Part shown: in pieces, positions 1 through 34,170 of the stretch
Numbering within the stretch: position 1 is the stretch's first letter
How the letters are laid out: every line of letters begins with the position of its first letter
From: Polyangiaceae bacterium
GTDB taxonomy: Bacteria > Myxococcota_A > Polyangia > Polyangiales > Polyangiaceae
Reading direction: 5' to 3'
Assembly: GCA_016712345.1 (NCBI GenBank)
Contig: JADJRH010000002.1
Coordinates: forward strand, 8,466-72,465
DNA length: 64,000 nt
Notes under the pieces: model-generated
Seen by the model: the letters and a program-made list of their open reading frames with translations, nothing else
What the model was told of the DNA's origin: nothing
Databases searched by the model: none
Made by a program: the position numbers and the translations under genes

Positions 1-274
1 CGAAGCGACGAAACCAATGAACCAATGGAGCTCCATTCAATGGATCTCCACTCAACTTCACCGCACCACCTGACATACTATTCAGAGCAGTAGAAAAATC
101 CGCCTCACAAACATGCTTCTTGCCAAGTTCAGGATCCCAACCGAAGCGTAAGATTCCGGCAGCAAATTCGCCGGATGTGGCGCAAAAACAGGCACAACAA
201 CGCTTTCTCACTCCCAAGATTGACGGCGCCTTCTGAGAAAAAACATGAGCGCCTCTACCCAGAAAATTCTGTGG
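1..274 (-). repeat. 3' part of an ORF-less cassette, family N4 (truncated by window edge)
   Basis: Matches the last about 270 nt of cassettes 57150..58311, 58413..59591 and 60894..62061. Confidence 0.6.
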
Positions 275-2795: not shown

Positions 2796-2896
2796 CCTTA
2801 ACGTGGCAATCTGCTGCAAGCCCCAAAAGCAAGCAGAGCGGCCGAAGGACGCTCTGCGCAGCGTTGGGGATTGCCAGCAGCATTGCCGAGTTAGGT
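2796..2896 (-). other. attC site 3 (family A)
   Basis: CCTTAAC...GTTAGGT boxes. Arms GGCAATCTGCTGCAAGCCCC / GGGGATTGCCAGCAGCATTGCC. Central CAGAGCGGCCGAAGGACGCTCTG hairpin. Confidence 0.75.
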
Positions 2897-3980
2897 ACCT
2901 GACTCCCAACAAAGTGTTTTCGAATTTGTAACGCCGCACGCCGCGTTTTGAAGGGAGGAGCCGATTCCCAATTGTGTACACGAGGCAAACTCACGAACGC
3001 CGATTCGGTGTGTACACAAATCAGATTTCGAGACGCCAAGCCCACCGAAAACCTCCGCGCGAAACGAATACTACCTGTCTCAACCGGCCTGTCAACGCTT
3101 TCGAGCATGTCACCAGCGCCACCAAAATTGACGCCCACTTCACGCAACGTGGCACACGACGGGAAAGCCAAACCGCGACCACGCGGTTTGGTCCTTGAGA
3201 CAAATCTGAACGCGCCGAAATGTTGGCGAGATGGAAAACCTGCCTCTCCGAAACACAAGCTGGCTTTCGCCGAAGGCGTATAGGAAACGCTGACAATCAG
3301 GCCGTTTCGTCGATCTACCCACGCGCTCCCAACTGCGCGGTCTTCGCTCCGAATGTGTACACGGAGTGTCGACGGACACGAGGCCTCTCAGGGGCGAACC
3401 CGAAGTACAAGTAAGCTCATCCGAAGGCGCAAATGAAGCGTTTTGAGCAACGCTCCGATTCAAAAAAGAACAATGCCGCACCGAATATCAAGCGAAGCGC
3501 GATATTTGTGTACACGCACTGCGGCCACGCGTGCCGGCGTGTTTGCGTTGTTACACGAACGCCCTGAAAAGAAGCGAAGCGCGACAAATGTACCCATAAA
3601 AACCTACCCATGGCCGATTGCGCACATGTGGGTACACACAAACTTTTCGGACGAAATGAGCGCCTATCAAAGCAAAGTGATTTTCAAATGAGTCATACTG
3701 CCCACGATGTGTCGCATCGAACCCAAATCCGTCAACTCCAAATCTACCCACGGTCGGACATGGTTAGATCATGAATTGATAATGGATTAGAAGATACCCC
3801 ACCGGATGAACTACCGGTTGTCGCGGGAGTATAATTTTTGAACTTACCCACCCTCAACCCGAGCGCCGGTGAAGAACGATCAGGACATGCAAAATCCCTC
3901 GCAAAAGAGCCTCCGCGCACCAACTACCCACGTGCGCTTTCCGACAAAATTCAAGCGATTCTACCCACAAAATTCTGTGT
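2897..3980 (-). repeat. ORF-less cassette payload, family N1
   Basis: No ORF is conserved across copies. Shares TTTTCGAATTTGYAACGCCGCAC, TGTGTACAC palindromes, AAGCGAAGCGCGA and CTACCCA motifs with at least 9 other cassettes. Confidence 0.6.
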
Positions 3981-4080
3981 ACCTAACGTTGCGGTGTGCT
4001 GCGGCCGGGCGGCGCAAGCAGGGCGGACGAAGGACGCCCTGCGCAGCAAGCCCGGCCGTCAGTACCAGCGCATGGTTGGG
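3981..4080 (-). other. attC site 4 (family C)
   Basis: ACCTAAC...GTTGGGC boxes. Arms TTGCGGTGTGCTGCGGCCGGGCGG / CCCGGCCGTCAGTACCAGCGCATGG. Confidence 0.7.
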
Positions 4081-5183
4081 CACCTTGTGCTGGATGGGTT
4101 GTTTTCGAATTTGCAACGCCGCACCCCGCGTTTTGAAGGGAGAACGCCACCGCGACAAATGTACACAAGGCCATCTCACTGGCGATGATTGAATGTGTAC
4201 ACTTTTCAGCCTTGCCGCTATCAACCCCACCGTGTCCTCCGCACAATCCGTAGACTATCTGTATCAAAATGGCGGTCAAGCGCAATCTGCCCTACGAGGG
4301 TGATGCACTCGGGGTGCGCGGCCCGAACGCCGACGTCTCAAAATGTCGTGCGTACACTCGACCCACTCCGACACCGAAAATAAATTCATGAGGCCGAGCC
4401 GCGGCCTACGCGCGGCTTGGCCCTTCGAGTGCGCACGAGGGGTATCGAAGGGAGTGAGTTCTCGACGCGAGGGACCGAAATACAAGTTGGCTGACCCGAA
4501 GGCGCAAAATGAAGCGTTTCGCAAACCCGTGCGGCTAGAAAAAATACACCACGGGATCTGACATCCAGCGAAGCGCGATATTGCGTACACGCTCCGCGGC
4601 TGCGCACGCCAGCGTGTTTCCGTTGTGTCGCGGCGCTGCGAAAACAAGCGAAGCGCGACAAGTGTACCCATCAAGACCTGGCCAATGCCATTTCGTACAC
4701 GTGGGTACGCATGAACCTCTCGGGGAGAAATGGACCGCTGACCGATGAAACGAAGCTGATAGTTGAACAACCGCGCCCCCAAACAGAGGCACAGAAATCA
4801 GTCGAATCTCCACCTTCGAATCTACCCACTTCACCAACCAACTTGAACGCAAATTGAAGGTGAAGTGATGCAGCAGCTCCGACACAATTCTGGGTCGCTT
4901 CTTTTGTACAATATGACCGCGGATCTACCCATTCAATTGATCGACGTTGCACCAGTTGAGAAGAGGTAGATGCGAGAGAAAGTCCTTCAAAATGCGCCTC
5001 TACCCACCCGCAGGGCGTCAGTCTCTCTGTAAAAACAAACCTACCCATCGCGCCACTTCATCGAGCCGTTGGTGAGGAACAGTCAAGGTGCGCGCCGACC
5101 TTAAGAAAAGCGTCTCGATCGGTCCACTACCCATACCGCTTTCAGAAAAAAACGAAAACGACTCTACCCACAAAATTCTGTGT
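4081..5183 (-). repeat. ORF-less cassette payload, family N2
   Basis: Homologous to 20081..21179 and 59693..60791. Confidence 0.6.
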
Positions 5184-5312: not shown

Positions 5313-6437
5313 CTACCAATCCTCCTCGCGTATAACTTCTCGCTCAATAAGGAGCGCCAAAGCATCCGCCATGTCGGTGAGTATCAATCGATCTTCTTTG
5401 GGTATGAGAGCGATCCTGCCCCGCTCACTCTGAGATGTCGTGGCCTGGTTATCAATTCGAATGGTAAGGGAACGAAACTCATAGCTCCACGTGCCAACCA
5501 TCCTGGCTTCCGACCCATGAAAATGCGCGTGGAGCTTGTGAGGCGTCGACGTGTACAGCGTTTTACCCGGCAGAAAGCGGAACGCGCATCCTCCTACGCC
5601 GCCCTTGCGAACGGTTCGAAGAATAGACTCCAATACTGCAAGTGACATGTCCGCCAGTCGCGGATCAGCACGAAACTCCAGCTTGCTTTCTTCGACGTAC
5701 ATACGAGCGCCGTAGAAGTAGATGCTTGACTCACCCACGTCGTGTTGGGGGCGACCAATAAAATTCCATTGTACATCGCCTGATTGTTGTTGCATTCCGC
5801 CTTGCAGATACTGGTGCTCGACTCCCAGCTTCTGGAGCGCCTCCGCGGTTATCTCGATGATTCGCGACGGCGGCTCGGTCGCACCGCTCTCGCGAGTGAG
5901 CGTCACACGGATGTCGTCAATGAACGCCGAGTGGCGAGCCAATGCTCCAGTTCTCGCGCCCGACTCGGTGCGAAAGAACTCGTTGTATTCATCTAGTGAA
6001 AATACCTGCGCGTGCTGATGTCCGAACTCCTCATTGGACACCGCGATCAAATTATCTAGGCCGTCGGGCGACGTTATGTTGAATCCTTGAAGGAGGCTGA
6101 TCGGTGGTGGAAGCTGCGTCAGGTCGACCCCGAAGATGCCGACCGGGATGACCCGAACTCCTTTCGCGTAAACGAAGCCAGCTTCGAAGTACACCCACCT
6201 TGAATCGAGTGACGCTGGCGATAAGAAGACGATCATAAGGGTAGCTCGTTCAAGAGCTTCCTGGACCTTGTGTACCCAATTTCGCCCGAGTGGAATGCTC
6301 TGACCGTCACTGGATAGAAACACGTCAATGGTTCCACCGGTCTTCGCCACGAACATCTGCTTTAGACGAGTAAGTCTGTCTTTGTCCCGCGGTGAGTGGC
6401 TGAAGAAAACCGTGGGTTTGCTCTTGCTCTTGCTCAT
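5313..6437 (-). CDS. TIR-domain protein with uncharacterised about 230-aa C-terminal domain
   Basis: 374 aa. N-terminus VFFSHSPRDKDRLTRLKQMFVAKTGGTIDVFLSSDGQSIPLGRNWVHKVQEALERATLMIVFLSPASLDSRWVYFEAG is a bacterial TIR pattern, including the conserved Glu. First gene of a three-gene minus-strand operon inside a single cassette. Confidence 0.75.
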   Translation of the reverse strand: MSKSKSKPTVFFSHSPRDKDRLTRLKQMFVAKTGGTIDVFLSSDGQSIPLGRNWVHKVQEALERATLMIVFLSPASLDSRWVYFEAGFVYAKGVRVIPVGIFGVDLTQLPPPISLLQGFNITSPDGLDNLIAVSNEEFGHQHAQVFSLDEYNEFFRTESGARTGALARHSAFIDDIRVTLTRESGATEPPSRIIEITAEALQKLGVEHQYLQGGMQQQSGDVQWNFIGRPQHDVGESSIYFYGARMYVEESKLEFRADPRLADMSLAVLESILRTVRKGGVGGCAFRFLPGKTLYTSTPHKLHAHFHGSEARMVGTWSYEFRSLTIRIDNQATTSQSERGRIALIPKEDRLILTDMADALALLIEREVIREEDW

Positions 6438-8030: not shown

Positions 8031-9068
8031 CGAGTTAGGTACCTGACTCCCAACAGAGTGTTTTCGAATTTGTAACGCCGCACGCCGCGTTTTGAAGGGA
8101 GTAGCCGATGCCCAATTGTGTACACGAGGCAAACCGACGAGCGCCGACTCGGTGTATACACAATTTTGACTTCGCGCTGCCAGACCCACCGAGAACCTCC
8201 GCGCGAAACGAATACTACCCGTCTCAACCGGGCTGTCAACGCTTTCGAGCATGTCACCAGCGCCACCAAAATTGACGCCCACCTCAAGCAACGTTGTCCA
8301 AGATCGGGCAGACCAAACCGCGACGGCCCGCTCTGTCCACGAAAAACGCACGAAGGTGCCGAAATGTTGGCGAGATGAAAACCAACCTGCGCGAAACAGG
8401 AAACGCCTACAAGCGGGCAGTTTCGTTGATCTACCCATGCGCTCCCAACACGGAGTGTCGACGGACACGAGGCCTCTCAGGGGCGAACCCGAAGTACGAG
8501 GAAGCTCATCCGAAGGGGCAAATGAAGCGTTTTGAGCAACGCTCCGATTCAAAAAGAACAATGCCGCACCGAATATCAAGCGAAGCGCGACACTTGCGTA
8601 CACGCACCGCGGCCACGCATGACAGCGTGGTTATGTTGTTGCGCGAACGCCGCAAAAAGAAGCGAAGCGCGACAAATGTACCCATAAAAACCTACCCATG
8701 GCCGACTGCGCACATGTGGGTACACACAAACTTTTCGGACGAAATGAGCGCCTATCAAAGCAAAGTGATTTTCAAATGAGTCATACCGCCCACGGATGTG
8801 TCGCATCGAACCCAAATCCGCCAACTCCAAATCTACCCACGGTCGGACATGGTTAGATCATGAATTGATAATGGATTATGAAGATACCCCACCGGATGAA
8901 CTACCGGTCGTTGTGGGAGTATAATTTTTGAACTTACCCACGCTCAACCCGACCGCCGGTGAAGAACATCAGGATATGCAAAATGCCTCGCAAAAGAGCC
9001 TCCGCGCACCAACTACCCACGTGCGCTTTCCGACAAATTCAAGCGATTCTACCCACAAAATTCTGTGT
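8031..9068 (-). repeat. ORF-less cassette payload, family N1
   Basis: Collinear with 2897..3980. Confidence 0.6.
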
Positions 9069-9235
9069 ACCTAACGTGGCATTCAGCCGCAAAGGCCGCA
9101 TCCCGCAACGTGTCAGGTGGGAAGAGGGAAGCCGCCGAGCCACATCCGTAAAACTTAAAAAAAGTGCTCGGCGGCGCCCCGTGCGAGACGTGACCGGATG
9201 CGACGGCCTTTGTCGGCTGCAATGCCGAGTTAGAC
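9069..9235 (-). other. attC site 7 (family L)
   Basis: ACCTAAC...GTTAGAC boxes. Long palindrome as in site 2. Confidence 0.65.
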
Positions 9236-9565
9236 CTCTGGGGGCTCATATTTCCCACGACCGGGCCAGTGTATTCCGAATCTGAATCTGTAGTCAACGG
9301 TGAAAAAAAGTTACGTTCCATTCCGCACAGTTGAGTCGCCTTGCAGTCTAATTTTTCGAATCGCGTCCATTTTGCGCAACACCCCCAATGGCCTTGATGG
9401 ATACTGACTTTCTGACTTTTCCACTCGACTGTCAGGTTAGAAAGGCGGTGTACACAACCACGGTGTTGTGTCAATCAGTTTATACAAAATAAAACGGAGC
9501 CGCCCGGTGCTTGCAACACCGAACGGCCCCTTGACCTGCCCCCCGCAGCAACGGAGAGCAAGCCC
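9236..9565 (+). promoter_or_regulatory. Conserved about 330-bp leader/promoter region of sigma-factor cassette (paralog 1)
   Basis: Conserved in all six sigma cassettes. Contains GTCAAC-N15-CGTTCC, an ECF -35/-10-like element, and an ACACAAC-N4-6-GTTGTGT hairpin before the RBS. Confidence 0.4.
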
Positions 9566-10324
9566 ATGGAAAAGAATAGTCGTGATTTGTCCGCAGCTCG
9601 AATTTTCGGAGCCGCGAATGCTGTTGAGCCTGAAAATACCGATGAAATCAAGTGGCCGCCAAACGCACCAGACAAGTGGGTCAGGAGCGTGCCGGGTCGC
9701 CGCGGTAACCACCACCCATCGCTCTACTTACCCGAACCACAAGCGCGCGACCTGAATTCACTTCGCCCGGTTATCGAAAGGATCTTGCGCCGACACCGTG
9801 TAACTGCCCGCCACATTCCTGACCTGATTCAAGAGATCTTGGCGGAGTTAATTCGCGTCGCGAGAAGCCGCGGACACAGCAGTCAACCTCCCATCAACTC
9901 AACCGCGTATGGATTTGTTGCGGTGGTAGCCCGTCGCGTGGCGCGAAACCGGTCGGTGCTCAAAGCCCTCGGCGAACGGGAAGATCTCGGTGAATTGTGG
10001 GATCTGCTCGATTGTGAGGAGTCTCCCCATTCAACTTCCACGGGCGCGACTCCACTGGACTTGATAATCGAAAAGGAAGAAGAACAGAAGTTGACCGATC
10101 GACTCGACTGGTTGAGTCAGGCCACGAAGTCGAGATATTGGCGCGCTTTTTACGCCTTCACGATATTGGCCACGCCGATTGAAGACATCGCCGAAAGTGA
10201 AAATGTCAGTCCAGCCTCCATTTACGACCGTGTTCGACGAGCACGCGAAGACATCAAAGCCGCGCTCCAACGCGACAGAGCGAGCCGCGCTCCAAAGATG
10301 GACCTGAAACCATCCCAAACCTGA
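9566..10324 (+). CDS. ECF-type RNA polymerase sigma-70 factor (cassette paralog 1)
   Basis: 252 aa. Region-2-like segment HIPDLIQEILAELIRVARS...YGFVAVVARRVARNRS. Region-4 HTH segment RYWRAFYAFTILATPIEDIAESENVSPASIYDRVRRAREDIKAAL. Six paralogs are present in the window. Confidence 0.7.
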   Translation: MEKNSRDLSAARIFGAANAVEPENTDEIKWPPNAPDKWVRSVPGRRGNHHPSLYLPEPQARDLNSLRPVIERILRRHRVTARHIPDLIQEILAELIRVARSRGHSSQPPINSTAYGFVAVVARRVARNRSVLKALGEREDLGELWDLLDCEESPHSTSTGATPLDLIIEKEEEQKLTDRLDWLSQATKSRYWRAFYAFTILATPIEDIAESENVSPASIYDRVRRAREDIKAALQRDRASRAPKMDLKPSQT

Positions 10325-10492
10325 CCTGCCCAATTCTGGCCCGCCGCCCGCGCGTTTATAAATCCCCAGAAATCCGCCATTGTTATCCAATCCGACAGTC
10401 AAGTCAGATTGTCAGGCCTCCCTGATTGTGTGATTGGGTATGCCGCAAAATCTGAATGGGCTATACCATTTTGGAAAGTGGCTACGTTGCAG

Positions 10493-10593: not shown

Positions 10594-11629
10594 ACCTGAC
10601 GCCCATTAGAGTGTTTTCGAATTTGGAACGACGCACGCCGCGTTTTGAAGGGAGTAGCCGATTCCCAGTTGTGTACACGAGGCAAACGGACAAACGCCGG
10701 TTGAGTGTGTACGCAAATCAGATTTCGCGACGCCAAACCCACCGAAAACCTCCGCGCGAGACGAATACTACCTGTCTCAACCGTCTTGTCAACGCTTTCG
10801 AGCGCGTCGCCAGCGCAACCAAAATTGACGCCCACCTCAAGCAACCTGGTCCAAGATCGGACGTACCAAACCGCGACGCCGACCGGCAGCTCTGGCCACG
10901 AAAAAATGCACGAAGGTGCCGAAATGTTGGCGAGATGAAAACCAACCTGCGCGAAACAGGAAACGCCTACAAGCGAGCAGTTTCGGTGATCTACCCACGC
11001 GCTTCCAACACGGAGTGTCGACGGACACGAGGCCTCTCAGGGGCGAACCCGAAGTACAAGTAAGCTCATCCGAAGGCGCAAATGAAGCGTCTTGAGCAAC
11101 GCTCCGATTCAAAAAGAACAATGCCGCACCGAATATCAAGCGAAGCGCGATATTTGTGTACACGCACTGCGGCCACGCGTGCCGGCGTGTTTGCGTTGTT
11201 ACACGAACGTCCTGAAAAGAAGCGAAGCGCGACAAATGTACCCATAAAAACCTACCCATGGCCGATTGCGCACATGTGGGTACACACAAACTTTTCGGAC
11301 GAAATGAGCGCCTATCAAAGCAAAGTGATTTTCAAATGAGTCATACTGCCCACGGATGTGTCGCATCGAACCCAAATCCGTCAACTCCAAATCTACCCAC
11401 GGTCGGACATGGTTAGATCATGAATTGATAATGGATTAGAAGATACCCCACCGGATGAACTACCGGTCGTCGCGGGAGTATAATTTTTGAACTTACCCAC
11501 CCTCAACCCGACCGCCGGTGAAGAACGATCAGGACATGCAAAATCCCTCGCAAAAGAGCCTCCGCGCACCAACTACCCACGTGCGCTTTCCGACAAAATT
11601 CAAGCGATTCTACCCACAAAATTCTGTGT
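10594..11629 (-). repeat. ORF-less cassette payload, family N1
   Basis: Collinear with 2897..3980. Confidence 0.6.
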
Positions 11630-11796
11630 ACCTAACGTGGCATTCAGCCGCAAAGGCCGCATCCCGCAACGTGTCAGGTGGGAAGAGGGAAGCCGCCGAG
11701 CCACATCCGTAAAACTCAAAAAAAGTGCTCGGCGGCGACCCGTGCGAGACGTGACCGGACGCGACGGCCTTTGTCGGCTGCAATGCCGAGTTAGAC
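11630..11796 (-). other. attC site 9 (family L)
   Basis: ACCTAAC...GTTAGAC boxes. Long palindrome. Confidence 0.65.
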
Positions 11797-12125
11797 CTCT
11801 GGGGGCTCATATTTCCCACGACCGGGCCAGTGTATTCCGAATCTGAATCTGTAGTCAACTGTGAAAAAAAGTTACGTTCCATTCCGCACAGTTGAGTCGC
11901 CTTGCAGTCTAATTTTTCGAATCGCGTCCATTTTGCGCAACACCCCCAATGGCCTTGATGGATACTGACTTTCTGACTTTTCCACTCGACTGTCAGGTCA
12001 GAAAGGCGGTGTACACAACCGCGGAGTTGTGTCAATCAGTTTATACAAAATAAAACGGAGCCGCCCGGTGCGTCAACACCGAACGGCCCCTTGACCTGCC
12101 CCCCGCAGCAACGGAGAGCAAGCCC
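11797..12125 (+). promoter_or_regulatory. Conserved sigma-cassette leader (paralog 2)
   Basis: Same conserved block as 9236..9565. Confidence 0.4.
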
Positions 12126-12884
12126 ATGGAAAAGAATAGTCGTGATTTGTCCGCAGCTCGAATTTTCGGAGCCGCGAATGCTGTTGAGCCTGAAAATACC
12201 GATGAAATCAAGTGGCCGCCAAACGCACCAGACAAGTGGGTCAGGAGCGTGCCGGGGCGCCGCGGTAACCACCACCCATCGCTCTACTTACCCGAACCAC
12301 AAGCGCGCGACCTGAATTCACTTCGCCCGGTGATCGAAAGGATCTTGCGCCGACACCGTGTAACTCCTCGCCACATTCCCGACCTGATTCAAGAGATCTT
12401 GGCGGAGTTAATTCGCGTGGCGAGAAGCCGCGGGCACAGCAGTCAACCTCCCATCAACTCAACTGCGTACGGATTTGTTGCGGTGGTAGCCCGTCGCGTG
12501 GCGCGAAACCGGTCGGTGCTCAAAGCCCTTGGTGAACGGGAAGATCTCGGTGAATTGTGGGATCTGCTCGATTGTGAGGAGTCTCCCCATTCAACTACAA
12601 CGAGCACCACTCCACTGGACTTGATAATCGAAAAGGAAGAAGAACAGAAGTTGACCGATCGACTCGACTGGTTGAGTCAGGCCACAAAGTCGAGATATTG
12701 GCGCGCTTTTTATGCGTTTACCATTTTGGCCGTGCCAATCGAAGACATCGCCGAAAGTGAAAATGTCAGTCCAGCCTCCATTTACGACCGTGTTCGACGA
12801 GCCCGCGAAGACATCAAAGCCGCGCTCCAACGCGACAGAGCGAGCCGCGCGCCAAAGATGGACCTGAAACCATCCCAAACCTGA
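12126..12884 (+). CDS. ECF-type sigma-70 factor (paralog 2)
   Basis: Same architecture as paralog 1, with a few substitutions. Confidence 0.7.
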   Translation: MEKNSRDLSAARIFGAANAVEPENTDEIKWPPNAPDKWVRSVPGRRGNHHPSLYLPEPQARDLNSLRPVIERILRRHRVTPRHIPDLIQEILAELIRVARSRGHSSQPPINSTAYGFVAVVARRVARNRSVLKALGEREDLGELWDLLDCEESPHSTTTSTTPLDLIIEKEEEQKLTDRLDWLSQATKSRYWRAFYAFTILAVPIEDIAESENVSPASIYDRVRRAREDIKAALQRDRASRAPKMDLKPSQT

Positions 12885-13050
12885 CCTTACCCAATTCGAG
12901 CCCGCCGCCCTGCCTTTGCCGGGGCCGACAAAAATAGCCATTTCATTCAATCTGATAGTCAAGTCGGATTGTCAATTTTCCCGATTGGGTGATTGGGAAT
13001 GCCGCAAATCTGAATGGGCTATACCATTTTGGAAAGTGGCTGCGTTGCAG

Positions 13051-14383: not shown

Positions 14384-14714
14384 CTCTGGGGATTGCTACG
14401 ACCCATGTTTTGGAGCATCGTATTCCGAATCTGAATCTGTAGTCAACTGAGAAAAAAAGTTACGTTCCATTCCGCACAGTTGAGTCGCGTTGCAGTCTAA
14501 TTTTTCGATTCGCGTCCATTTTGCGCGCCGCCCCGAATGGCCCCGATGGATACTGACGCTCTGACATTCCACTCGACTGTCAGGTCAGAAAGGCGGTGTA
14601 CACAACCGCGGCGTTGTGTCAACGAGTTTGTACAAAATAAAACGGAGCCGGCCGGTGCTTGGAACCACCGAACGGCCCCTTGACCTGCGCCCCGCACCAA
14701 CGGAGAGCAAGCCC
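14384..14714 (+). promoter_or_regulatory. Conserved sigma-cassette leader (paralog 3)
   Basis: Same conserved block. Confidence 0.4.
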
Positions 14715-15473
14715 ATGGAAAAGAATAGTCGTGATTTGTCCGCAGCTCGAATTTTCGGAGCCGCGAATGCTGTTGAGCCTGAAAAAACCGATGAAATCAA
14801 GTGGCCGCCAAATGCACCGGACAAGTGGGTGAAGAGCGCGCCGGGCCGCCGCGGCAACCACCACCCATCGCTCTACTTACCCGAACCACAAGCCCGCGAC
14901 CTGAATTCACTTCGCCCGGTGATCGAAAGGATTTTGCGCCGCCACCGTGTAACTCCCCGTCACATTCCTGACCTGATTCAAGAGATCTTGGCGGAGTTAA
15001 TTCGCGTTGCGAGAAGCCGCGGACACAGCAGTCAACCTCCCATCAACTCAACCGCGTACGGATTTGTCGCGGTAGTGGCGCGCCGAGTGGCGCGAAACCG
15101 GTCGGTGCTCAAAGCCCTTGGCGAGCAAGAAACACTCGGTGAATTGTGGGATCTGCTCGATTGTCAGGAATCTCCCCATTCGACTGCGAGGAGTACAACT
15201 CCACTCGATTTGATGATTGAGAAAGAAGAAGAACAGAAGTTGACCGATCGACTCGACTGGTTGAGTCAGGCCACGAAGCCGAGATATTGGCGCGCTTTTT
15301 ATGCATTCACCATTTTGGCCGTACCGATCGAAGACATTGCCGAGAGTGAAAATATCAGTCCGGCCTCGACTTACGATCGGATTCGACGAGCACGCGACGA
15401 CATCAAAGCCGCGCTCCAACGCGACCGGGCGAGCCGTGCACCAAAGATGGACCTGAAGCCATCCCAAACCTGA
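14715..15473 (+). CDS. ECF-type sigma-70 factor (paralog 3)
   Basis: Starts at the conserved MEKNSRDL methionine inside track ORF 14616..15473. Confidence 0.7.
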   Translation: MEKNSRDLSAARIFGAANAVEPEKTDEIKWPPNAPDKWVKSAPGRRGNHHPSLYLPEPQARDLNSLRPVIERILRRHRVTPRHIPDLIQEILAELIRVARSRGHSSQPPINSTAYGFVAVVARRVARNRSVLKALGEQETLGELWDLLDCQESPHSTARSTTPLDLMIEKEEEQKLTDRLDWLSQATKPRYWRAFYAFTILAVPIEDIAESENISPASTYDRIRRARDDIKAALQRDRASRAPKMDLKPSQT

Positions 15474-15637
15474 CCTTCCATTTTCGCCCCGCCTGCGCTC
15501 GCTTTTCTCAACCCGCAAAATGCACTGTACAAAGGGACTTGATGGTCAAGTCGAGTGTACATTTGTGTGCCATTGAGTTGCTGGGTCTGCACCAAATGTC
15601 ACTGGGGTATACCATTTAGAAAGGCGCTATTTTGTAG

Positions 15638-15741: not shown

Positions 15742-16281
15742 GTGCGAGTAGGCAAGTGGCCTCGAAAGGACGACACGCCCGGCCTCAACTTGCCCGAGCC
15801 ATTTGACTCAAGAGAACACGGCCACACGCTTCGTTTCTCAGGACGCGCCGCACCGCCGGGTCGGCAATCAAAAGGCAACGGCGCAAATCTACCCATGCTC
15901 AAGTGCCCGCCACGGTGAGAGCCACGAAGCGAATGCTATCTGTGGCCCAGCGGGTGTCAATTGCCAAAATGGTCCACCATCCGAAAAAAAGCTCGACCGC
16001 TGGGCCAATGTTCTTGCGTAATTGATAACGCGCGACTCTGTTCGACGGTCAACCGCCGCCGTCAAACTTCACTACTGCCCTCGCCGTGCGCTACTACTTG
16101 CTTTGTGCCCAGGGAGGCGTGCAAGATTTCGCAGAAAAACATCGACCCGCTGACTTGAAAACGTCCGCTCCCTCCTGCCGCCAATGTGTGCGCCCCGAGG
16201 GGGCCGGTTCTCAGTTCGATACAAATTGGGTTCAGTGTGGGAATCCTGTTTGTAATAGACAGACAGACGGTCGCTCGCTCG

Positions 16282-17103
16282 CTACCTACCATCATGATCG
16301 TCCTCGTCAGATGACGATGCAGTCGGGAGCCCAGCATGTTCAAAGCAGAAAGCCAGATCTGGGCCGTACGCATGGTCGCCACAGAATGCTGCTCCGCACC
16401 ACTTCGGGTTGAGGTCACCTTCTTCGAGCGGATAATCGCAGTAGAAGTCAGCGAATGCGGAACAATTACCGTTTTCGCAAGTGAGTGATCGCTCGTTGGT
16501 CGCCGTTGGAAGTGGGTAGTATAAAGGGATGTGCTTTATTGAGAACGTGACACTTGGAATATTCGTTAGCGGCGCATCAATACGGCCCTGCGCCAGCGTG
16601 TCAGCGATCGCGAGTTTCAGATACCGTCGTACCAAGAGCAACGGAGGGAAAGCGTTCCTCAATGCGTACCACTCCAGTACGTCGCGAGCGGACTTACTGC
16701 TATTACATGAGCGACACGCCCAAACGAGATTGTCACCGGATTCAGCACCGCCGCGGTGTCTTGGAATCAGGTGATCGCCGTGAAGCTTCGGTGGCGGGGT
16801 TGCACCGCAATAAACGCAACGATCCCTGGGCATCTCGAGGACGTCGGCGAAAAGCGTTCCAAGCTTCATCGTGCCTTGGCAGAGGCCTTTGAAGAGCTTT
16901 GCTCGAACCATCCAACACCCAGCGTCGTATCTGGTGAGGCCGCGCTTTTCGGCGACACCTGCTGCCGCGAGATTTGCGTACGACCAATACAGGAGTTCGC
17001 CGACGGTTTCGATCCGCTTCGATCTATTTCCGGTCGTTCTATACCGACGAATAGGTGCGCCGCCGCTCTCGATTCCGCCCGGGATCTGATTCTGGTTTGA
17101 CAT
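16282..17103 (-). CDS. HNH endonuclease-domain protein with C-terminal Cys-rich region, copy a
   Basis: HNH motif CVYCGATPPPKLHGDHLIPRHRGGAESGDNLVWACRSCNSSK. ATG at 17103 (MSNQNQ); the track's upstream start falls inside an attC. Confidence 0.7.
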   Translation of the reverse strand: MSNQNQIPGGIESGGAPIRRYRTTGNRSKRIETVGELLYWSYANLAAAGVAEKRGLTRYDAGCWMVRAKLFKGLCQGTMKLGTLFADVLEMPRDRCVYCGATPPPKLHGDHLIPRHRGGAESGDNLVWACRSCNSSKSARDVLEWYALRNAFPPLLLVRRYLKLAIADTLAQGRIDAPLTNIPSVTFSIKHIPLYYPLPTATNERSLTCENGNCSAFADFYCDYPLEEGDLNPKWCGAAFCGDHAYGPDLAFCFEHAGLPTASSSDEDDHDGR

Positions 17104-17130
17104 CACACGTATGCGTTCACTTCTTCGTCC

Positions 17131-17233: not shown

Positions 17234-17776
17234 CGTGCGAGTAGGCAAGTGGCCTCGAAAGGACGACACGCCCGGCCTCAACTTGCCCGGAGCCATTTGA
17301 CTCAAGAGAACACGGCCACACGCTTCGTTTCTCAGGACGCGCCGCACCGCCGGGTCGGCAATCAAAAGGCAACGGCGCAAATCTACCCATGCTCAAGTGC
17401 CCGCCACGGTGAGAGCCACGAAGCGAATGCTATCTGTGGCCCAACGGGTGTCAATTGCCAAAATGGTCCACCATCCGAAAAAAAGCTCGACCGCTGGGCC
17501 AATGTTCTTGCGTAATTGATAACGCGCGACTCTGTTCGACGGTCAACCGCCGCCGTCAAACTTCACTACTGCCCTCGCCATGCGCTACTACTTGCTTCGT
17601 GCCCAGGGAGGCGTGCAAGATTTCGCAGAAAAACATCGACCCGGTGACTTGAAAACGTCCGCCCGCACCTGCCGCCAATGTGTGCGCCCCGAGCGGGGCC
17701 GGTTCTCAGTTCGATACAAATTGGGTTCAGTGTGGGAATCCTGTTTGTAATAGACAGACAGACGGTCGCTCGCTCG

Positions 17777-18598
17777 CTACCTACCATCATGATCGTCCTC
17801 GTCAGATGACGATGCAGTTGGGAGCCCACCATGTTCAAAGCAGAAAGCCAGATCTGGGCCGTACGCATGGTCGCCACAGAATGCTGCTCCGCACCACTTC
17901 GGGTTGAGGTCGCCTTCTTCGAGCGGATAATCGCAGTAGAAGTCAGCGAATGCGGAACAATTACCGTTTTCGCAAGTGAGTGATCGCTCGTTGGTCGCCG
18001 TTGGAAGTGGGTAGTATAAAGGGATGTGCTTTATTGAGAACGTGACACTTGGAATATTCGTTAGCGGCGCATCAATACAGCCCTGCGCCAGCGCGTCAGC
18101 GATCGCGAGTTTCAGATACCGTCGTACCAAGAGCAACGGAGGGAAAGCGTTCCTCAATGCGTACCACTCCAGTACGTCGCGAGCGGACTTACTGCTATTA
18201 CATGAGCGACACGCCCAAACGAGATTGTCACCGGATTCAGCACCGCCGCGGTGTCTTGGAATCAGGTGATCGCCGTGAAGCTTCGGTGGCGGGGTTGCAC
18301 CGCAATAAACGCAACGACCCCTGGGCATCTCGAGGACGTCGGCGAAAAGCGTTCCAAGCTTCATCGTGCCTTGGCAGAGGCCTTTGAAGAGCTTTGCTCG
18401 AACCATCCAACACCCAGCGTCGTAACTCGTGAGGCCGCGCTTATCGGCGACACCTGCTGCCGCGAGATTTGCGTACGACCAATACAGGAGTTCGCCGACG
18501 GTTTCGATCCGCTTCGATCTATTTCCGGTCGTTCTATACCGACGAATAGGTGCGCCGCCGCTCTCGATTCCGCCCGGGATCTGATTCTGGTTTGACAT
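17777..18598 (-). CDS. HNH endonuclease-domain protein, copy b
   Basis: Near-identical tandem cassette duplicate of copy a. ATG at 18598. Confidence 0.7.
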   Translation of the reverse strand: MSNQNQIPGGIESGGAPIRRYRTTGNRSKRIETVGELLYWSYANLAAAGVADKRGLTSYDAGCWMVRAKLFKGLCQGTMKLGTLFADVLEMPRGRCVYCGATPPPKLHGDHLIPRHRGGAESGDNLVWACRSCNSSKSARDVLEWYALRNAFPPLLLVRRYLKLAIADALAQGCIDAPLTNIPSVTFSIKHIPLYYPLPTATNERSLTCENGNCSAFADFYCDYPLEEGDLNPKWCGAAFCGDHAYGPDLAFCFEHGGLPTASSSDEDDHDGR

Positions 18599-18625
18599 CA
18601 CACGTATGCGTTCACTTCTTCGTCC

Positions 18626-18729: not shown

Positions 18730-19056
18730 CTCTGGGGATTGCTACGACCCATGTTTTGGAGCATCGTATTCCGAATCTGAATCTGTAGTCAACTGTGAAA
18801 AAAGTTACGTTCCATTCCGCACAGTTGAGTCGCCTTGCAGTCTAATTTTTCGAATCGCGTCCATTTTGCGCACCACCCCGAATGGCTCCGATGGATACTG
18901 ACTTTCGACCGTGCACTCGACTGTCAGGTCAGAAAGGCGGTGTACGCAACCACGGAGTTGTGTCAACGAGTTTGTACAAAATAAAACGGAGCCGCCCGGT
19001 GCTGGAACACCGAACGGCCCCTTGACCTGCCCCCCGCCGAAACGGAGAGCAAGCCC
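18730..19056 (+). promoter_or_regulatory. Conserved sigma-cassette leader (paralog 4)
   Basis: Same conserved block. Confidence 0.4.
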
Positions 19057-19815
19057 ATGGAAAAGAATAGTCGCGATTTGTCCGCAGCTCGAATTTTCGG
19101 AGCCGCGAATGCTGTTGAGCCTGAAAAAACCGATGAAATCAAGTGGCCGCCAAATGCACCGGACAAGTGGGTGAAGAGCGCGCCGGGCGGCCGCGGCAAC
19201 CACCACCCATCGCTCTACTTACCCGAACCGCAAGCCCGCGACCTGAATTCACTTCGCCCGGTGATCGAAAGGATCTTGCGCCGCCACCGTGTAACTCCCC
19301 GTCACATTCCTGACCTGATTCAAGAGATCTTGGCGGAGTTAATTCGCGTTGCGAGAAGCCGCGGACACAGCAGTCAACCTCCCATCAACTCAACCGCGTA
19401 CGGATTTGTAGCGGTCGTGGCCCGTCGAGTGGCGCGAAACCGGTCGGTGCTCAAAGCCCTTGGCGAGCAAGAAACACTCGGTGAATTGTGGGATTTGCTT
19501 GATTGTCAGGAATCTCCCCATTCGACTGCGACGAGTACAACTCCACTTGACTTGATGATCGAAAAAGAAGAAGAACAGAAGTTGACCGATCGACTCGACT
19601 GGTTGAGTCAGGCCACGAAGCCGAGATATTGGCGCGCTTTTTATGCATTCACCATTTTGGCCGTGCCGATCGAAGACATTGCCGAGAGTGAGAATATCAG
19701 TCCGGCCTCGACTTACGATCGCATTCGACGAGCACGAGACGACATCAAGGCCGCGCTCCACCGCGATCGGGCGAGCCGCGCACCAAAGATGGACCTGAAA
19801 CCATCCCAAACCTGA
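19057..19815 (+). CDS. ECF-type sigma-70 factor (paralog 4)
   Basis: Paralog with the same start (MEKNSRDL) and the same region-2 and region-4 motifs. Confidence 0.7.
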   Translation: MEKNSRDLSAARIFGAANAVEPEKTDEIKWPPNAPDKWVKSAPGGRGNHHPSLYLPEPQARDLNSLRPVIERILRRHRVTPRHIPDLIQEILAELIRVARSRGHSSQPPINSTAYGFVAVVARRVARNRSVLKALGEQETLGELWDLLDCQESPHSTATSTTPLDLMIEKEEEQKLTDRLDWLSQATKPRYWRAFYAFTILAVPIEDIAESENISPASTYDRIRRARDDIKAALHRDRASRAPKMDLKPSQT

Positions 19816-19979
19816 CGTTCCATTTTCGTCCCGCCTGCGCTCGCTTTTTTCAATCCCCAAAACGCATTGTACAAACGGACTTGATAGTCAAGTCAAGTGT
19901 ACATTTGTGTGCAATTGAGTTGCTGGGTCTGCACCAAATGTCACTGGGGTATACCATTTAGAAAGGCGCTATTTTGTAG

Positions 19980-20080: not shown

Positions 20081-21179
20081 ACCTTGTGCTGGATGGGTTG
20101 TTTTCGAATTTGCAACGCCGTATCCCACGTTTTGAAGGGATGACGCGATCGCGACAAATGTACACAAGGCCATCTCGATGGCGACGATTGAATGTGTACA
20201 CTTTTGAGCATTGCCGCTATCAACCCCACCGTGTCCTCCGCACAATCCGTAGACTATCTGTATCAAAATGGCAGTCAAGCACAATTTGCCCTGCGAGAGT
20301 GATGCACTCGGGGTGCGCATCCACAACGCCGACGTCTCAAAATGTCGTGCGTACACTCGACCCACTCCGACACCGAAAATAAATTCATCAGGCCGAGCCG
20401 CGGCCTACGCGCGGCTTGGCCCTTCGAGTGCGCACGAGGAGTATCGAAGGGAGTGAGTTCTCGACGCGCGGGAGCAAAATACAAGTTTGCTCACCCGAAG
20501 GCGCAAAATAAAGCGTTTCGTGAACCCGTGCGGCAAGAAAAAATACACCACCGGATCTGACATCCAGCGAAGCGCGATATTGCGTACACGCTCCGCGGCT
20601 GCGCACGCCAGCGTGTTTCCGTTGTGTCGCGACGCTGCAAAAACAAGCGAAGCGCGACAAGTGTACCCATAAAGACCTGGCCAATGCCATTTCGTACACG
20701 TGGGTACACATGAACCTCTCGGGGAGAAATGGACCGCTGACCGATGAAACAAAGCTGATAGTTGAACAACCGCGCCCCCCGAACAGAGGCACAGAAATCA
20801 GTCGAATCTCCACCTTCGAATCTACCCACTTCACCAACCAACTTGAACGCAAATTGAAGGTGAAGTGATGCAGCAGCTCCGACACAATTCTGGGTCGCTT
20901 CTTTTGTACAATATGACCGCGGATCTACCCATTCAATCGATCGACGTTACACCAGTTGAGAAGAGGTAGATGCGAGGGAAAGTCCAAAAAAGCGCCTTTA
21001 CCCAAGCGCAATCCGCGTCAGTCTCTTTGTAAAAACGAACCTACTCACTTTGCCACTCGACCAAGCCGCGGGTGAGGAACAGTAAGGTGCGCACCACCTT
21101 GGAAAAGCGCCTCGAACGGTCAACTACCCATACCGCTTTCTGAAAAAACTAAAACGACTCTACCCACAAAATTCTGTGT
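20081..21179 (-). repeat. ORF-less cassette payload, family N2
   Basis: Collinear with 4081..5183. Confidence 0.6.
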
Positions 21180-21283: not shown

Positions 21284-22299
21284 ACCGTGCGCTGGGTAGA
21301 GTGTTCTCGAATTTGCAACGCCGCACGGCTTGTTTTGAAGGTGAAATGCGCGTCCGATAAATGTACACAAGGCCGTCCGAATGAGGATCGCCGAATGTGT
21401 ACACTGGTCAAGTTTCGCGCCATAAACCCACCAACCGCTGCGTACGCGTCGTAGACTACGCGTATCAAAATGACCGTCAAGTACAATCTGTGGCCGCGCG
21501 GGTGATGGCGCTTGGCGCGTGCAAGCATAACGCCAACCACACGAAATACCCGGCGTACATGCGACCGCCGACGAGTGGAAAAGAAAGCCGGAAGCCCGAG
21601 CCGCGGCCTACGCGCGAACGCGAAGTATCGAAAGCAAAGACGCCTCGCCGTGAGGAACCGAAATACAAGGTGGTTTATCCGAAGGTGCGAATCAAGCGCT
21701 TCGAAAAACCGCACGGCTTGCGGAAAAAACATCACCGCATCTGACACTCCGCGAAGCGCGATATGTACACGCACCGAAGTTACCCATGCCGACGTGTTGG
21801 CGACCGCACGCGGATGCCGACAAAAACAAGCGAAGCGCGACAAGTGTACCCATGTGAAGGCCGTCCGAATTATTGTGTACACGTGGGTACATTCTACCTT
21901 TTCGAAAAGAAGCGAAGCGCGTCTCGTGGGGCAACCGTTTCGACTCAACAATACCGCTGCTGGAGCGAAGCGACCAAACCCCGTGACGGACTGCGCCTCC
22001 ATTGAAATTGGACCCCTCCACTCAACAGTCAACCAGTCAACCAGTCAACCAGTCAACCAGTCAACCAGTCAACCAGTCAACCTTACCGCCCCACGCGATA
22101 TGTTATTTCCGAGGGTAGAAACATCTCTCTCGCAGACACGCTCATTGTCAAATTCAGAATCGCAACTGAAGGGTAAGATAGCAGGTAAAGCTTGATCAAA
22201 TGTGCCTTCAAAATAGACTCAACAACGCTTCCTCAAGCCAAGGCCTGACACTGCCTTTCTGGGAAAAAAGATGAGCGCCTCTACCCAGAAATTCTGTGT
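21284..22299 (-). repeat. ORF-less cassette payload, family N3 (with GTCAACCA array)
   Basis: Shares the N core and the 3' boundary. Contains an internal tandem octamer array. Confidence 0.6.
22027..22082. repeat. Tandem octamer array (GTCAACCA)x7
   Basis: Perfect head-to-tail repeats inside an N3 cassette. Confidence 0.85.
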
Positions 22300-22428: not shown

Positions 22429-22911
22429 TTATTGACCCCCCGGCTGGGTTGCTTGCTGCGACCCAATCGGCGATGCCGGCGACGACACCATGTGCGGCTG
22501 TCGCAGCTCGGTGCAATACTGGAACGCTGGAGGAGGCAGGCGCACCGCTGAAGAAGCGGATCTCGCTGGCAGTGGGGCCGGCGGTGCCCGCGGGTCCACC
22601 TCGCAGAAGCGTGTACACTGGGCGCCACTCCAGTCAAAACCAAACGGGGTGGGTGGTCTTGGGCCAATAATCGGCGGATGATTGTAAGAGACATCGGGCG
22701 AACCGCCTGCGCATGCGTACAATGCTCCTCGCCCACATCCTGTGACCCGATGCATGCCGTAACCAACGTCCTCGATGGTAAGCTGGTCCTTTGGGCACGC
22801 CAGATTAGCAGAGGCAATATTTGCTGGTGAACTGCCGCATGCAACAAGCAGATCGAGAAAGGCACACAGGCCGACAAGTGGAACGATAGGCGTGTTCAAT
22901 TGCTGCAACAT
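22429..22911 (-). CDS. Putative lipoprotein
   Basis: Starts MLQQLNTPIVPLVGLCAFLDLLVACGSS, which looks like a lipobox signal peptide. About 160 aa. Product unknown. Confidence 0.4.
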   Translation of the reverse strand: MLQQLNTPIVPLVGLCAFLDLLVACGSSPANIASANLACPKDQLTIEDVGYGMHRVTGCGRGALYACAGGSPDVSYNHPPIIGPRPPTPFGFDWSGAQCTRFCEVDPRAPPAPLPARSASSAVRLPPPAFQYCTELRQPHMVSSPASPIGSQQATQPGGQ

Positions 22912-23750: not shown

Positions 23751-24176
23751 TCACTCTTTGACAGCCCCGAGCGCCCGGAGGGCGGTTTCCACTTCGCGAG
23801 CCACCCGGATGACCGCCTCGACCAAAGCCGCATCAATATCGAAAACACCATCGTATTCTGACTGGTTCCGCTTTCTATGGGCTTGGTCGAGAACTCGCCA
23901 CTTTTCGTTCGCGATACTGAGCGTGTGAGGTAGAACCTGGAATACGATGTATCTGTTGTCCGAGCGGTAGCCGCGCCAGCGTAAACCGCCAAGAGCGAGG
24001 GCGTGGGCTGCGTTGTATGCGAGGTCGAAGCGGCTCTCAAGGGAAAGACTGGTGTTCTCGGCGTCCTGGAGGCGACGCGCACCGGATCTCAACAGGCCAT
24101 CGATCTCCTCCTGGGCCGGATCTTCGCGCCGGAGTTGACCTGACCTCGCGAGATTTTCAAGTGCCGTGATGGTCAT
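23751..24176 (-). CDS. HEPN-domain toxin (HepT-like) of HEPN/MNT TA pair
   Basis: 141 aa with an R-x4-HxxxY type motif (AHRKRNQSEYDG). Overlaps the upstream nucleotidyltransferase gene by 20 nt. Confidence 0.7.
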   Translation of the reverse strand: MTITALENLARSGQLRREDPAQEEIDGLLRSGARRLQDAENTSLSLESRFDLAYNAAHALALGGLRWRGYRSDNRYIVFQVLPHTLSIANEKWRVLDQAHRKRNQSEYDGVFDIDAALVEAVIRVAREVETALRALGAVKE

Positions 24177-24813
24177 TCAACTCTCCCAAGAGAACGTGAT
24201 GCTTGCCGGTCAGTACTTTCGTTAGGAAAGGATTCCTGCTTTTTCTCCGCGCGTCGAACTCCACAGCGGTGTACAGAGTCGGATTAATGCGCCGCCCGAG
24301 GCGTTCTTCCACCGGGCCGAGTGTACGAAAAAGATCCTCCAGCATCAACACATTGGAGACGACGAGAAGGTCAACGTCGCTGTCGGCCTTGTCTGTTTCT
24401 TTGGCCACCGACCCGAAAAGGACCGCCACATCAATATCTTTGGCGAGCGGTGCCAATGCGCGGCGCAGCACCTCCGCGACGCCGCTGGTCTTCTCGATAA
24501 TCGAGCAGAGTTCGCCAAAGATTGGGGAGTGCTCGTTCGCCTTATAACTCTTGCGCCCATCACGGTTGAACGTCGACACGAGCCCGCCGCTAACCAGGCG
24601 AGCAACTTCCCGCTGGACCGCCCCTGTGCCTGAGCCCGCCAGAGTGATCAACTCAGAGAGAAAAAAAGCGCGCTCAGGTTGGCCGAAGAATAACCCCAAA
24701 ACTCGTTGTTGCGTCTTGGTAAACAGCTCCGAGCCCAAACCGCTTGTCCGCGCATCTTGCAAAGATGACGAAGCAGGAGCGGTCATACCCAATTTGGGTT
24801 TTCTTTTACCCAT
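24157..24813 (-). CDS. Minimal nucleotidyltransferase (MntA-like) antitoxin with N-terminal wHTH
   Basis: Nucleotidyltransferase motif VAVLFGSVAKETDKADSDVDLLVVS. ATG at 24813 (the track starts at an alternative codon at 24849). Confidence 0.7.
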   Translation of the reverse strand: MGKRKPKLGMTAPASSSLQDARTSGLGSELFTKTQQRVLGLFFGQPERAFFLSELITLAGSGTGAVQREVARLVSGGLVSTFNRDGRKSYKANEHSPIFGELCSIIEKTSGVAEVLRRALAPLAKDIDVAVLFGSVAKETDKADSDVDLLVVSNVLMLEDLFRTLGPVEERLGRRINPTLYTAVEFDARRKSRNPFLTKVLTGKHHVLLGELNDHHGT

Positions 24814-24960
24814 TTTGGGTATATTACTGTTCAACGCTAACGGGCGCAAGTGATAGTTCCGCTCGCCTTGCGGGAGTCATCCACGATGCCGCATTCAATT
24901 CAGCCTTGGTAGTCAGATCGTTGAGCAAGGTGGTTGAATACATTGCCTCCTCTTCTGCCG

Positions 24961-25105: not shown

Positions 25106-25561
25106 TCAGGCGATCTTTTTGAAAGTAACGAAAAGATTCATGTTGAAAGCCTCTGCCACCTTCATGATTGTTTCGATCGTTGGATTCGCATCGGGATCTT
25201 CGAGTTTCGCAATTTGTTGTTGGGATACGCCAACGCGCTTCGCCAACTCGGTCTGACTCCACCCGCTCTCGTGTCGCATTGATCGGAGTTGCAATGCGAG
25301 CGCCAGTTTGGGTGAAATCGTGATGGGTACACTTCGCGCATCAGAAGTGGAACGTCGACGCACCCGTGGCAGTTCCAATCCCTCCACGAGATGGGCCTCC
25401 AACCAGCCTTCGATCGCTTCTTTAGCCATCGGATACACATCCTTCGCACTCTCTGCGAAGGTTTGACAACCCGGGGCGTCTGGAAACTCGATTAAGTAAT
25501 GCCGACCGTCTTTGCGAACGTGGGCAGTATACTGTAGCGTATCCGTGTGACGGTTGCTCAT
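25106..25561 (-). CDS. hicB: HicB-family antitoxin (RNase-H-like HicB N-domain + XRE HTH)
   Basis: MSNRHTDTLQYTAHVRKDGRHYLIEFPDAPGCQTF...GWSQTELAKRVGVSQQQIAKLE. Start derived from track ORF 25106..25882; overlaps the hicA stop codon. Confidence 0.75.
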   Translation of the reverse strand: MSNRHTDTLQYTAHVRKDGRHYLIEFPDAPGCQTFAESAKDVYPMAKEAIEGWLEAHLVEGLELPRVRRRSTSDARSVPITISPKLALALQLRSMRHESGWSQTELAKRVGVSQQQIAKLEDPDANPTIETIMKVAEAFNMNLFVTFKKIA

Positions 25562-34008: not shown

Positions 34009-34170
34009 TCGCTCTCTCCTTCGTGACGTCTCGCCGCTATCCATGAGGAATCGAGGTGCAACGTGTTCGAACCCAGGAACCTCGCAGACGGGTGGATCTC
34101 AGAGCTGGATCTAGGGCCTGGAGGGTGACGGCTCAGCGCCGCCGCTCTGCTCTCGCTGTTGTCGATACAT

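Follow-up and report, generated by a model that had tools for sequence, protein, structure and literature searches.

The 64,000-nucleotide stretch analyzed here (contig JADJRH010000002.1, positions 8,466-72,465; hereafter the window) is almost wholly one large chromosomal integron array, of more than 62 kb, of a Polyangiaceae (myxobacterial) metagenome-assembled genome (MAG), and ~1-kb cassettes that encode no protein, here named N, are repeated through this array. With 22 complete copies and one partial copy (23 in all), the N cassettes represent nearly half of the ~48 cassettes and together occupy 23.9 kb, or 39% of the array; positions 2897-3980, the focal segment, are exactly one N cassette body, lying between the attC sites 2797-2896 and 3981-4081. 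As judged from their sequences, the N families would be regulated promoter cassettes, most likely switching on neighbouring cassettes, a reading to which we give about even confidence.

Every complete N cassette carries one promoter-like site

A sigma-70-like site of the form TTGACN-16-TAGTNT was found exactly once in each of the 22 complete N copies, always 196-220 nt from the left end and the cassette's own attC, in the same alignment column and on the gene-bearing (-) strand. A whole-window search with the stricter TTGAC[AG]-16-TAGT[AC]T gave matches only inside N copies, while by our own estimate a pattern of 10 fixed bases would be expected ~0.1 times in the window by chance. In detail, TTGAC and the T, A, and final T of the -10 element were invariant, and the spacer was 38-95% conserved and always 16 nt long; invariant hexamers around a variable spacer of fixed length are usually the conservation mode of promoters rather than of other elements. 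When the looser TTG-N19-21-TAnnnT was searched on both strands, this site alone was common to at least 15 copies. Neither an extended -10 element, nor TGG-N9-TGC (sigma-54-like), nor GAAC...CGT (extracytoplasmic function (ECF)-like) was conserved at a fixed position in the N copies, and a sigma-54 reading of the invariant block, made by eye, did not convince and was abandoned.

Each N cassette would thereby supply one sigma-70-type promoter on the sense (-) strand, ~200 nt before its own attC. Transcription, predicted to start near 3061 (-) in the focal copy, would begin near the cassette 3′ end and proceed through a conserved leader of ~165 nt and the attC into the next cassette. The predicted leader carries two TGTGTACAC palindromes, the second nearly invariant across families, and a TTTTCGAATTTG motif, and no intrinsic terminator was conserved across the N families. 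The 23 scattered copies might then act as internal promoters keeping the distal cassettes of the >62-kb array expressed, among them those with TIR, SIR2, HNH, toxin-antitoxin, and similar genes. The core of ~340 bp, located 260-640 nt upstream of the focal promoter, would most likely function as double-stranded DNA to which one or more regulators bind, and such binding would make the promoter cassettes regulated.

Several points weigh against this reading. Promoter activity is predicted from sequence alone, and the -10 element of N2 and N3 is the weaker TAGTCT. A simple promoter needs neither 1 kb nor a conserved core of 340 bp, for which no binding protein could be named. Core and promoter are set apart by distances that differ by ~110 nt between families, so that any coupling of the two would not be phase-locked. 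Further, many N copies precede another N copy and not a gene, such as the five in a row that adjoin attI, and the strong strand bias of motifs and composition is not explained by the binding of symmetric dimers.

N cassettes are conserved in discrete blocks

End-to-end alignment showed that the N cassettes are conserved as primary sequence in discrete blocks. Between-family identity was 55% in the attC-proximal left part (43 of 200 columns invariant), 47% in the middle (3/119), 67% in the core (107 of 338 well-occupied columns), 44% in the right part (17/221), and 72% in the last 45 columns, 18 of which were invariant. The core is composed of GCGAAGCGCGA units and GTAC-type palindromes. Its tandem units are spaced 80-82 nt apart, with two per copy in N1 and N2 and three to four in N3 and N4, and each ~81-bp unit opens with an A-run and AAGCGAAGCGCGA followed by a GTAC-type motif. 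The core also carries GTGTACAC, the palindromic motifs TGTACCCA/TGGGTACA, and one-way CTACCCA repeats; per N copy, 4 palindromes and ~5 CTACCCA were counted.

In the window, TGTGTACAC occurred 61 times vs. 0.26 expected, AAGCGAAGCGCGAYA with at most one mismatch 47 times vs. 0.03 expected, all on the + strand, and TTTTCGAATTTGYAACGCCGCAC with at most three mismatches 9 times vs. 0 expected. In seven representative copies TACCCA occurred 35 times vs. 1.1 expected, with a strand ratio of 35:9. GTACAC occurred 31 times vs. 1.1 expected, and together with TGTACA was among the most over-represented hexamers. The base composition of the N cassettes is strand-biased as well, with A exceeding T by ~0.2. 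Of the 22 occurrences of AATTCTGTG, 21 abut attC or attI, and the remaining one (36428) lies at a truncated attC remnant in a fused N1c copy. A cluster of DnaA boxes was ruled out, as 4 matches were found vs. 7.8 expected.

The original prediction, made from the sequence before this analysis, had described an ordered motif set shared by all copies and a common core of ~250 bp; that its motifs are spelled on the integron bottom strand, the N cassettes reading on the - strand, had gone unnoticed. The motifs proved real and far above chance. In its exact form TTTTCGAATTTGYAACGCCGCAC is confined to N1a, N2, a single N1b copy, and a single N3 copy (21304), with diverged versions elsewhere; the shared core was likewise recovered, but its length is ~340 bp (3359-3702).

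N cassettes encode no protein

Indels between N copies, scored in pairs at 70-99.5% identity, were 1 nt long in 73% of cases and multiples of three in only 10%. No three-base periodicity of substitutions was found in N1, N3 plus N4, N2-N4, or all copies, either overall or in any 120-nt window (lowest p 0.13), whereas the sigma-factor cassettes of the same array, used as the coding control, gave p = 1e-13 and windows such as 1:1:19 in this test. The ten longest N open reading frames (ORFs) contained no Pfam domain, and the two matches listed for them were far below the cut-off (E ~0.04). For the + strand ORF of 202-216 aa that is kept in three N4 copies, substitutions were distributed 21/21/15 over the codon positions, with no third-position excess. 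Protein coding was thus ruled out on four grounds (indels, codon periodicity, Pfam scans, and the test of the N4 ORF), which bears out the earlier claim that no ORF is conserved between copies and that a protein is not the product.

The N cassettes accordingly agree with gene-less cassettes in encoding no protein, but not with the rule of Blanco et al. that such cassettes contain no ORF >210 bp, since stop-to-stop frames of 112-253 aa occur in the N bodies. These frames differ between copies and are without coding signal, and the 210-bp rule was made for AT-rich Vibrio DNA, while N DNA is 52-55% G+C.

N cassettes are bounded by attC sites and read on the - strand

A hairpin search combined with an attC profile detected ~48 attC sites between 275 and 62058, spaced 1.0-2.1 kb apart. 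They are imperfect hairpins with RYYYAAC...GTTRRRY ends and unpaired bulged bases on one arm, mostly 101-104 nt long and some 87-95 or 167 nt (overall range 87-167 nt). Every N body sits exactly between two attC sites, the array ends at 62058, where it adjoins attI and intI, and the mobile unit ends at the G↓TT crossover, the attC moving with its cassette. Bodies of ~1.0-1.26 kb are each followed by their own attC on the - strand, giving whole cassettes of 1.1-1.36 kb.

The bulged bases lie on the 3′ arm of the + strand. In attC sites generally, the position of the bulges marks the bottom strand; the + strand is therefore the bottom strand and the cassettes are read on the - strand. Three independent observations agree with this. 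The identified cargo genes (TIR, SIR2, HNH, nucleotidyltransferase, HicA/HicB, PAAR, PIN, and BrnT) are on the - strand, and in the TIR gene, the one checked, the start lies some tens of bases inside the right boundary and the end close to the attC on the left. The attC type on the left tracks the family of the repeated cassette, while that on the right does not. Among the copies whose right-hand attC was listed, the hexamer past the right end was ACCTAA↓C for N1 and GCCCAA↓C for N2-N4 with any attC type, as expected from a G↓TT crossover on the - strand.

The intI product is 100% identical to the NCBI entry "integron integrase [Polyangiaceae bacterium]", a MAG protein on a 738,087-bp contig. 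Integrase and cassettes share the - strand, an unusual arrangement that is also known in Treponema (PMC11014356). The intI-attI region (62060-63641) yielded no sigma-70-like cassette promoter.

N cassettes form four families

In a BLAST search of 2897-3980 against the window, 10 full-length relatives were found, and 12 further copies shared the core (E = 1e-19 to 1e-40). The end-to-end alignment of all copies resolved four families, N1 (with three subgroups), N2, N3, and N4, as had been predicted; the count of about 24 cassettes was corrected to the 23 copies given above. Identity was 50-68% between families and up to 100% within them. Two N2 copies (20081-21179 and 59693-60792) are identical, and their match starts right after the RYYYAA of the left attC; a match with the attC crossover as its exact starting point suggests that single cassettes have recently moved or been duplicated. 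N copies are also mosaic between subfamilies.

Some copies have rearranged or repetitive parts. Inside the N1c copy 35381-36640 (at 36428-36470), an internal N right end is followed by the truncated start of an attC (AAATTCTGTGTACCCAACGCGCCAATCTGCTGCGAGG) and next by another right-hand part; this copy looks like two cassettes fused by the loss of most of an attC. In another N1c copy (30771-31931) the right end is duplicated (31852-31931). The variable right part of N3 holds a tandem (CAGTCAAC)n of 0 to ~8 units between copies (e.g., ~27900-27970), and one N4 copy has a (CAACT)n tandem repeat around 59130-59150.

Structured RNA and other alternative explanations

For the conserved function, the original prediction had offered a structured RNA or protein-binding DNA. 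If the N cassettes were genes for a large structured non-coding RNA made from one strand, with the core as its folded catalytic or binding centre, it would be understandable that they are non-coding yet conserved and that their motifs are strongly strand-biased; the 11-bp inverted repeat TGTACCCAT-N31-TGGGTACA, in which U-G to U-A and G-C to A-U changes keep + strand pairing, and a second hairpin, predicted from the leader palindrome pair in N1-N3 but not in N4, might then be parts of its fold. However, the Rfam search that had been proposed gave no match over the whole window at gathering score, and at E ≤ 5 none in two stretches covering six copies, except an attC hairpin that matched a microRNA model. 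For the core, RNAalifold gave 37-43 pairs with covariation terms of -0.34 (+ strand) and -1.05 kcal/mol (- strand) and compensatory changes in only one and three pairs, respectively. A scan for stacked, conserved, and covarying column pairs detected no helix with at least two covarying pairs on the + strand, and on the - strand only 4-bp helices within the GTAC/ACAC repeats of the N copies. Minimum folding free energy (MFE) z-scores in 150-nt windows averaged -0.8 to +0.3 on both strands, like those of the TIR and SIR2 coding controls. In the inverted repeat, which is the sole good hairpin, 6 of the 11 pairs never vary and the observed values were reached by 192 of 500 shuffles; being conserved as sequence, it says nothing for or against folding. 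Altogether, within the limited power that ~10 independent lineages among the copies allow, no global or local covarying RNA structure was found on either strand, nor a thermodynamic signal, the conserved blocks being invariant sequence rather than paired columns. Neither compensatory changes nor a curated-family match thus places the N cassettes among structured non-coding RNAs, and we regard such a function as quite improbable. Of the two functions originally offered, DNA that acts as a promoter or binds protein fits better, since conservation is block-wise and all 22 complete copies have the promoter-like site with its fixed 16-nt spacer.

Binding of a protein could also serve ends unrelated to the transcription of neighbours, with the N copies forming an array that titrates a regulator or serves as its decoy, or else sites by which the integron array is organized. 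The dense repetition of short conserved motifs, as well as the presence of GTGTACAC upstream of the sigma-factor gene, the hicAB promoter, and intI, would suit this, but no candidate binding protein was identified, N and the sigma-factor upstream region showed no significant similarity and no shared two-block motif, DnaA boxes were not enriched, and the conserved promoter-like site would be left unexplained; we consider this role unlikely. Selfish spread is a still more doubtful explanation, in which the blocks of non-coding cassettes would act in cis on the single-stranded bottom strand, which is the one recombined by the integrase, to favour the cassette's excision, re-insertion, or second-strand synthesis. 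It would explain the multiplication to 23 copies and the single-cassette duplicates with exact attC boundaries, and the bias of all motifs toward the bottom (+) strand, the conservation of both attC-adjoining cassette ends, and the wobble positions of the inverted repeat, which fit + strand pairing, agree with it. GCGAAGC, an unusually stable DNA mini-hairpin, is also present 2-4 times per N copy. Yet by the tests made here, action on the bottom strand looks no different from plain conservation of sequence, AAC/GTT triplets, which the integrase needs, are absent from the motifs, the opposite strand has invariant promoter-like hexamers that are unaccounted for, and a high copy number is equally expected for useful promoter cassettes. 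A fuller version, to which we give slightly less credence again, is that the core and both ends act in the single-stranded bottom strand, where the 11-bp hairpin, along with the GCGAAGC mini-hairpins, would favour the cassette's own excision, its capture, or the synthesis of its second strand, the N cassettes being self-amplifying and the promoter keeping the host tolerant. Least probable by far is that the N cassettes are decayed pseudogenes of a former coding cassette, conserved through recent ancestry or gene conversion, even though some Vibrio gene-less cassettes are degenerate genes (PMC11014356) and the N copies are mosaic. In each of the 21 copies that were aligned, one of the two identical N2 copies being left out, invariant blocks of 24-30 nt stand beside stretches of 44-47% identity, a strongly uneven pattern unlike the long tracts expected from gene conversion; moreover, no frame retained periodicity, the longest ORFs were without Pfam domains, and no similar DNA was found in plasmids or phages.

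Relation to known gene-less cassettes

Gene-less cassettes make up 6-49% of Vibrio arrays, with 49% in V. vulnificus CMCP6, and most of those tested showed sense-strand promoter activity that turned on downstream cassettes (Blanco et al., 2024; PMC11014356). Three oral Treponema gene-less cassettes behave likewise, as outlined in the same source and in Tansirichaiya et al. (2019; PMC6557892). The N cassettes fit this class in position, orientation, and lack of a gene. As in the sedentary chromosomal integrons of Vibrionaceae, they are attC-bounded, gene-less, and interspersed in a very long array, and their predicted promoter lies on the sense strand, away from the cassette 5′ end, where it could drive downstream cassettes. 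Unlike them, the Vibrio cassettes are 491-666 bp long, AT-rich, and heterogeneous, many with scattered transcription starts and some of them decayed genes (PMC11014356). The N cassettes are about twice as long at 1.1-1.36 kb, have 52-55% G+C, and fall into four homologous families that share a 340-bp core of tandem units and a single predicted near-consensus promoter, always in the same place; promoter activity was measured in Vibrio, whereas for N it is predicted. The oral Treponema ORF-less cassettes with promoter activity resemble N in being gene-less but belong to Spirochaetes, not Myxococcota, and in the account given of them only three were tested, in E. coli (PMC6557892). No sequence is known to be shared between them and N. 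Group IIC-attC introns, as far as described in PMC3001079, also place non-coding or ORF-poor DNA at attC sites, opposite to cassette transcription and with outward promoters possible. In contrast, N cassettes lie between two complete attC sites, not inside one, and have their own family-specific attC; since the attC is complete on both sides and no Rfam group II intron model matched, they are not such introns.

One invariant 22-mer of the N cassettes had no true match in one genome per species of GTDB, where a single chance match lay inside a gene, and none in JGI metagenome contigs or viral contigs. A second N pattern gave only two chance matches, in AT-rich genes. The arrays beside the nearest relatives of the integrase (≤64% identical) contained nothing N-like, and no DNA similar to N was found in the collections of plasmids and phages. 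Across the collections searched, the N family is so far known only from this MAG.

To our knowledge, promoter cassettes have so far been shown only in Vibrio and, with three cassettes, in Treponema. If the promoter-cassette reading of N is true, it would extend the idea to Myxococcota and to an integron with its integrase on the cassette strand. The N array would be an unusually clean case, as its 22 homologous copies share a single, well-defined near-consensus promoter whose position is fixed, and it bears on the question of how, in very long chromosomal integrons, cassettes distant from the integrase-proximal promoter come to be expressed. The large block conserved upstream also hints that the cassettes could be under regulation instead of being expressed constitutively, and a dedicated regulator for integron-borne promoters, if there is one, would be new.

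Features of the array

Table 1. Coordinates of the N cassettes, the parts of the focal copy, and the integrase gene in the window.
Feature	Position	Strand	Promoter-like site	Remarks
Partial N4-type copy at window edge	1-274	-		nhmmer E = 2.4e-47 to right-hand profile
attC of the focal cassette	2797-2896	-		Its own attC, 3′ end on top strand; 101-nt imperfect hairpin RYYYAAC...GTTRRRY
Focal N1a body, non-coding	2897-3980	- (sense)	3068-3095	Aligns end to end with 21 other copies
attC-proximal motif TTTTCGAATTTGTAACGCCGCAC	2917-2939	+		Partly conserved; diverged in N1c, N3, N4
Two TGTGTACAC(A) palindromes	2973-3018			27 nt apart, in predicted transcribed leader
Sigma-70-like promoter TTGACA-16 nt-TAGTAT (predicted)	3068-3095	-		Reads toward 2897 into next cassette; 10/12 consensus positions
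Core	3359-3702			Common to all four families; 67% between-family identity
Core block CCGAAGTACAAG...ATCCGAAGGCGC	3400-3430	+
Head of tandem unit 1, AAGCGAAGCGCGATA	3490-3504	+		Followed by TGTGTACAC at 3507-3515
Head of tandem unit 2, AAGCGAAGCGCGACAARTGTACCCAT	3572-3597	+		Longest invariant block, unchanged in all copies
Inverted repeat TGTACCCAT-N31-TGGGTACA	3589-3636			Variable centre; 96.5% of cells paired
Conserved right end, ...TCTACCCACAAAATTCTGTGT	3935-3980			5′ start on top strand; 72% between-family identity
attC of the upstream cassette (N2 copy 4082-5183)	3981-4081	-		First six bases, ACCTAA, belong to focal cassette
N2	4082-5183	-	4252-4279
N1a	8041-9068	-	8212-8239
N1a	10594-11629	-	10765-10792
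N2	20081-21179	-	20251-20278	Identical to 59693-60792
N3	21284-22299	-	21453-21480
N3	27142-28159	-	27311-27338
N3	28264-29280	-	28433-28460
N1c	30771-31931	-	30941-30968
N3	34275-35291	-	34444-34471
N1c	35381-36640	-	35551-35578	With internal remnant of second copy
N1b	39102-40182	-	39272-39299
N1c	43205-44293	-	43375-43402
N1a	44395-45450	-	44566-44593
N3	48735-49729	-	48903-48930
N1c	49819-50907	-	49989-50016
N3	53516-54558	-	53684-53711
N1b	55963-57048	-	56134-56161
N4	57150-58311	-	57342-57369
N4	58413-59591	-	58605-58632
N2	59693-60792	-	59863-59890	Identical to 20081-21179
N4	60894-62058	-	61086-61113	First cassette at attI
intI (tyrosine recombinase, 337 aa)	62628-63641	-		Pfam Phage_integrase 1e-37, Phage_int_SAM_4 4e-22

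Two HNH-endonuclease cassettes (15742-17130 and 17235-18625) have ~540 nt of non-coding DNA after the gene. Both carry TTGACA-16-TAGCAT at 197-198 nt from the attC, as in N, with a similar extended -10 region, and the 3′ non-coding part is weakly similar to the left part of N; each may represent the fusion of a gene with a 3′ module of N type.

Six copies of a 1.25-kb sigma-factor cassette are also present (9236-10492, 11797-13050, 14384-15637, 18730-19979, 45555-46806, and 51012-52263). Their 252-aa product is a divergent ECF-type sigma-70 factor, named a sigma-70 family factor by NCBI; its full-length match to TIGR02937 (E = 7e-6) falls short of the curated cut-off. Lying on the + strand, antisense to the array, the gene shows strong purifying selection. 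Its protein cluster comprises 10 members on the 738-kb contig, and a search of 5.8 billion proteins gave no homologue elsewhere. A link between N and these six cassettes was not established, as they have only GTGTACAC and TTTTCGAAT in common, with no significant alignment. GTGTACAC is located at position 213 in five of the six sigma-factor cassettes, upstream of the gene, at 25875-25882, ~110 nt upstream of the hicAB promoter (TTGACC-16-TATCAT), at 63886-63893, 245 nt upstream of the intI start, and at 22611-22618 in one further non-N cassette; its occurrence outside the N copies may point to a shared regulator.

The cargo of the coding cassettes is typical of defence and toxin-antitoxin functions, with TIR (5313-6437), SIR2-like (46939-48582), PAAR (33463-34044), HicA/HicB-HTH (25106-25761), PIN (54707-55096), BrnT (1924-2271), and nucleotidyltransferase (24157-24849) genes. 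Three attC sites are unusually long at 167 nt (1471-1637, 9069-9235, and 11630-11796), with a second GC-rich hairpin and an A-run in the central loop. The ~560 bp between the intI stop codon and attI are extremely G-rich on the + strand, and the GC skew of 62001-64000 is +0.42.

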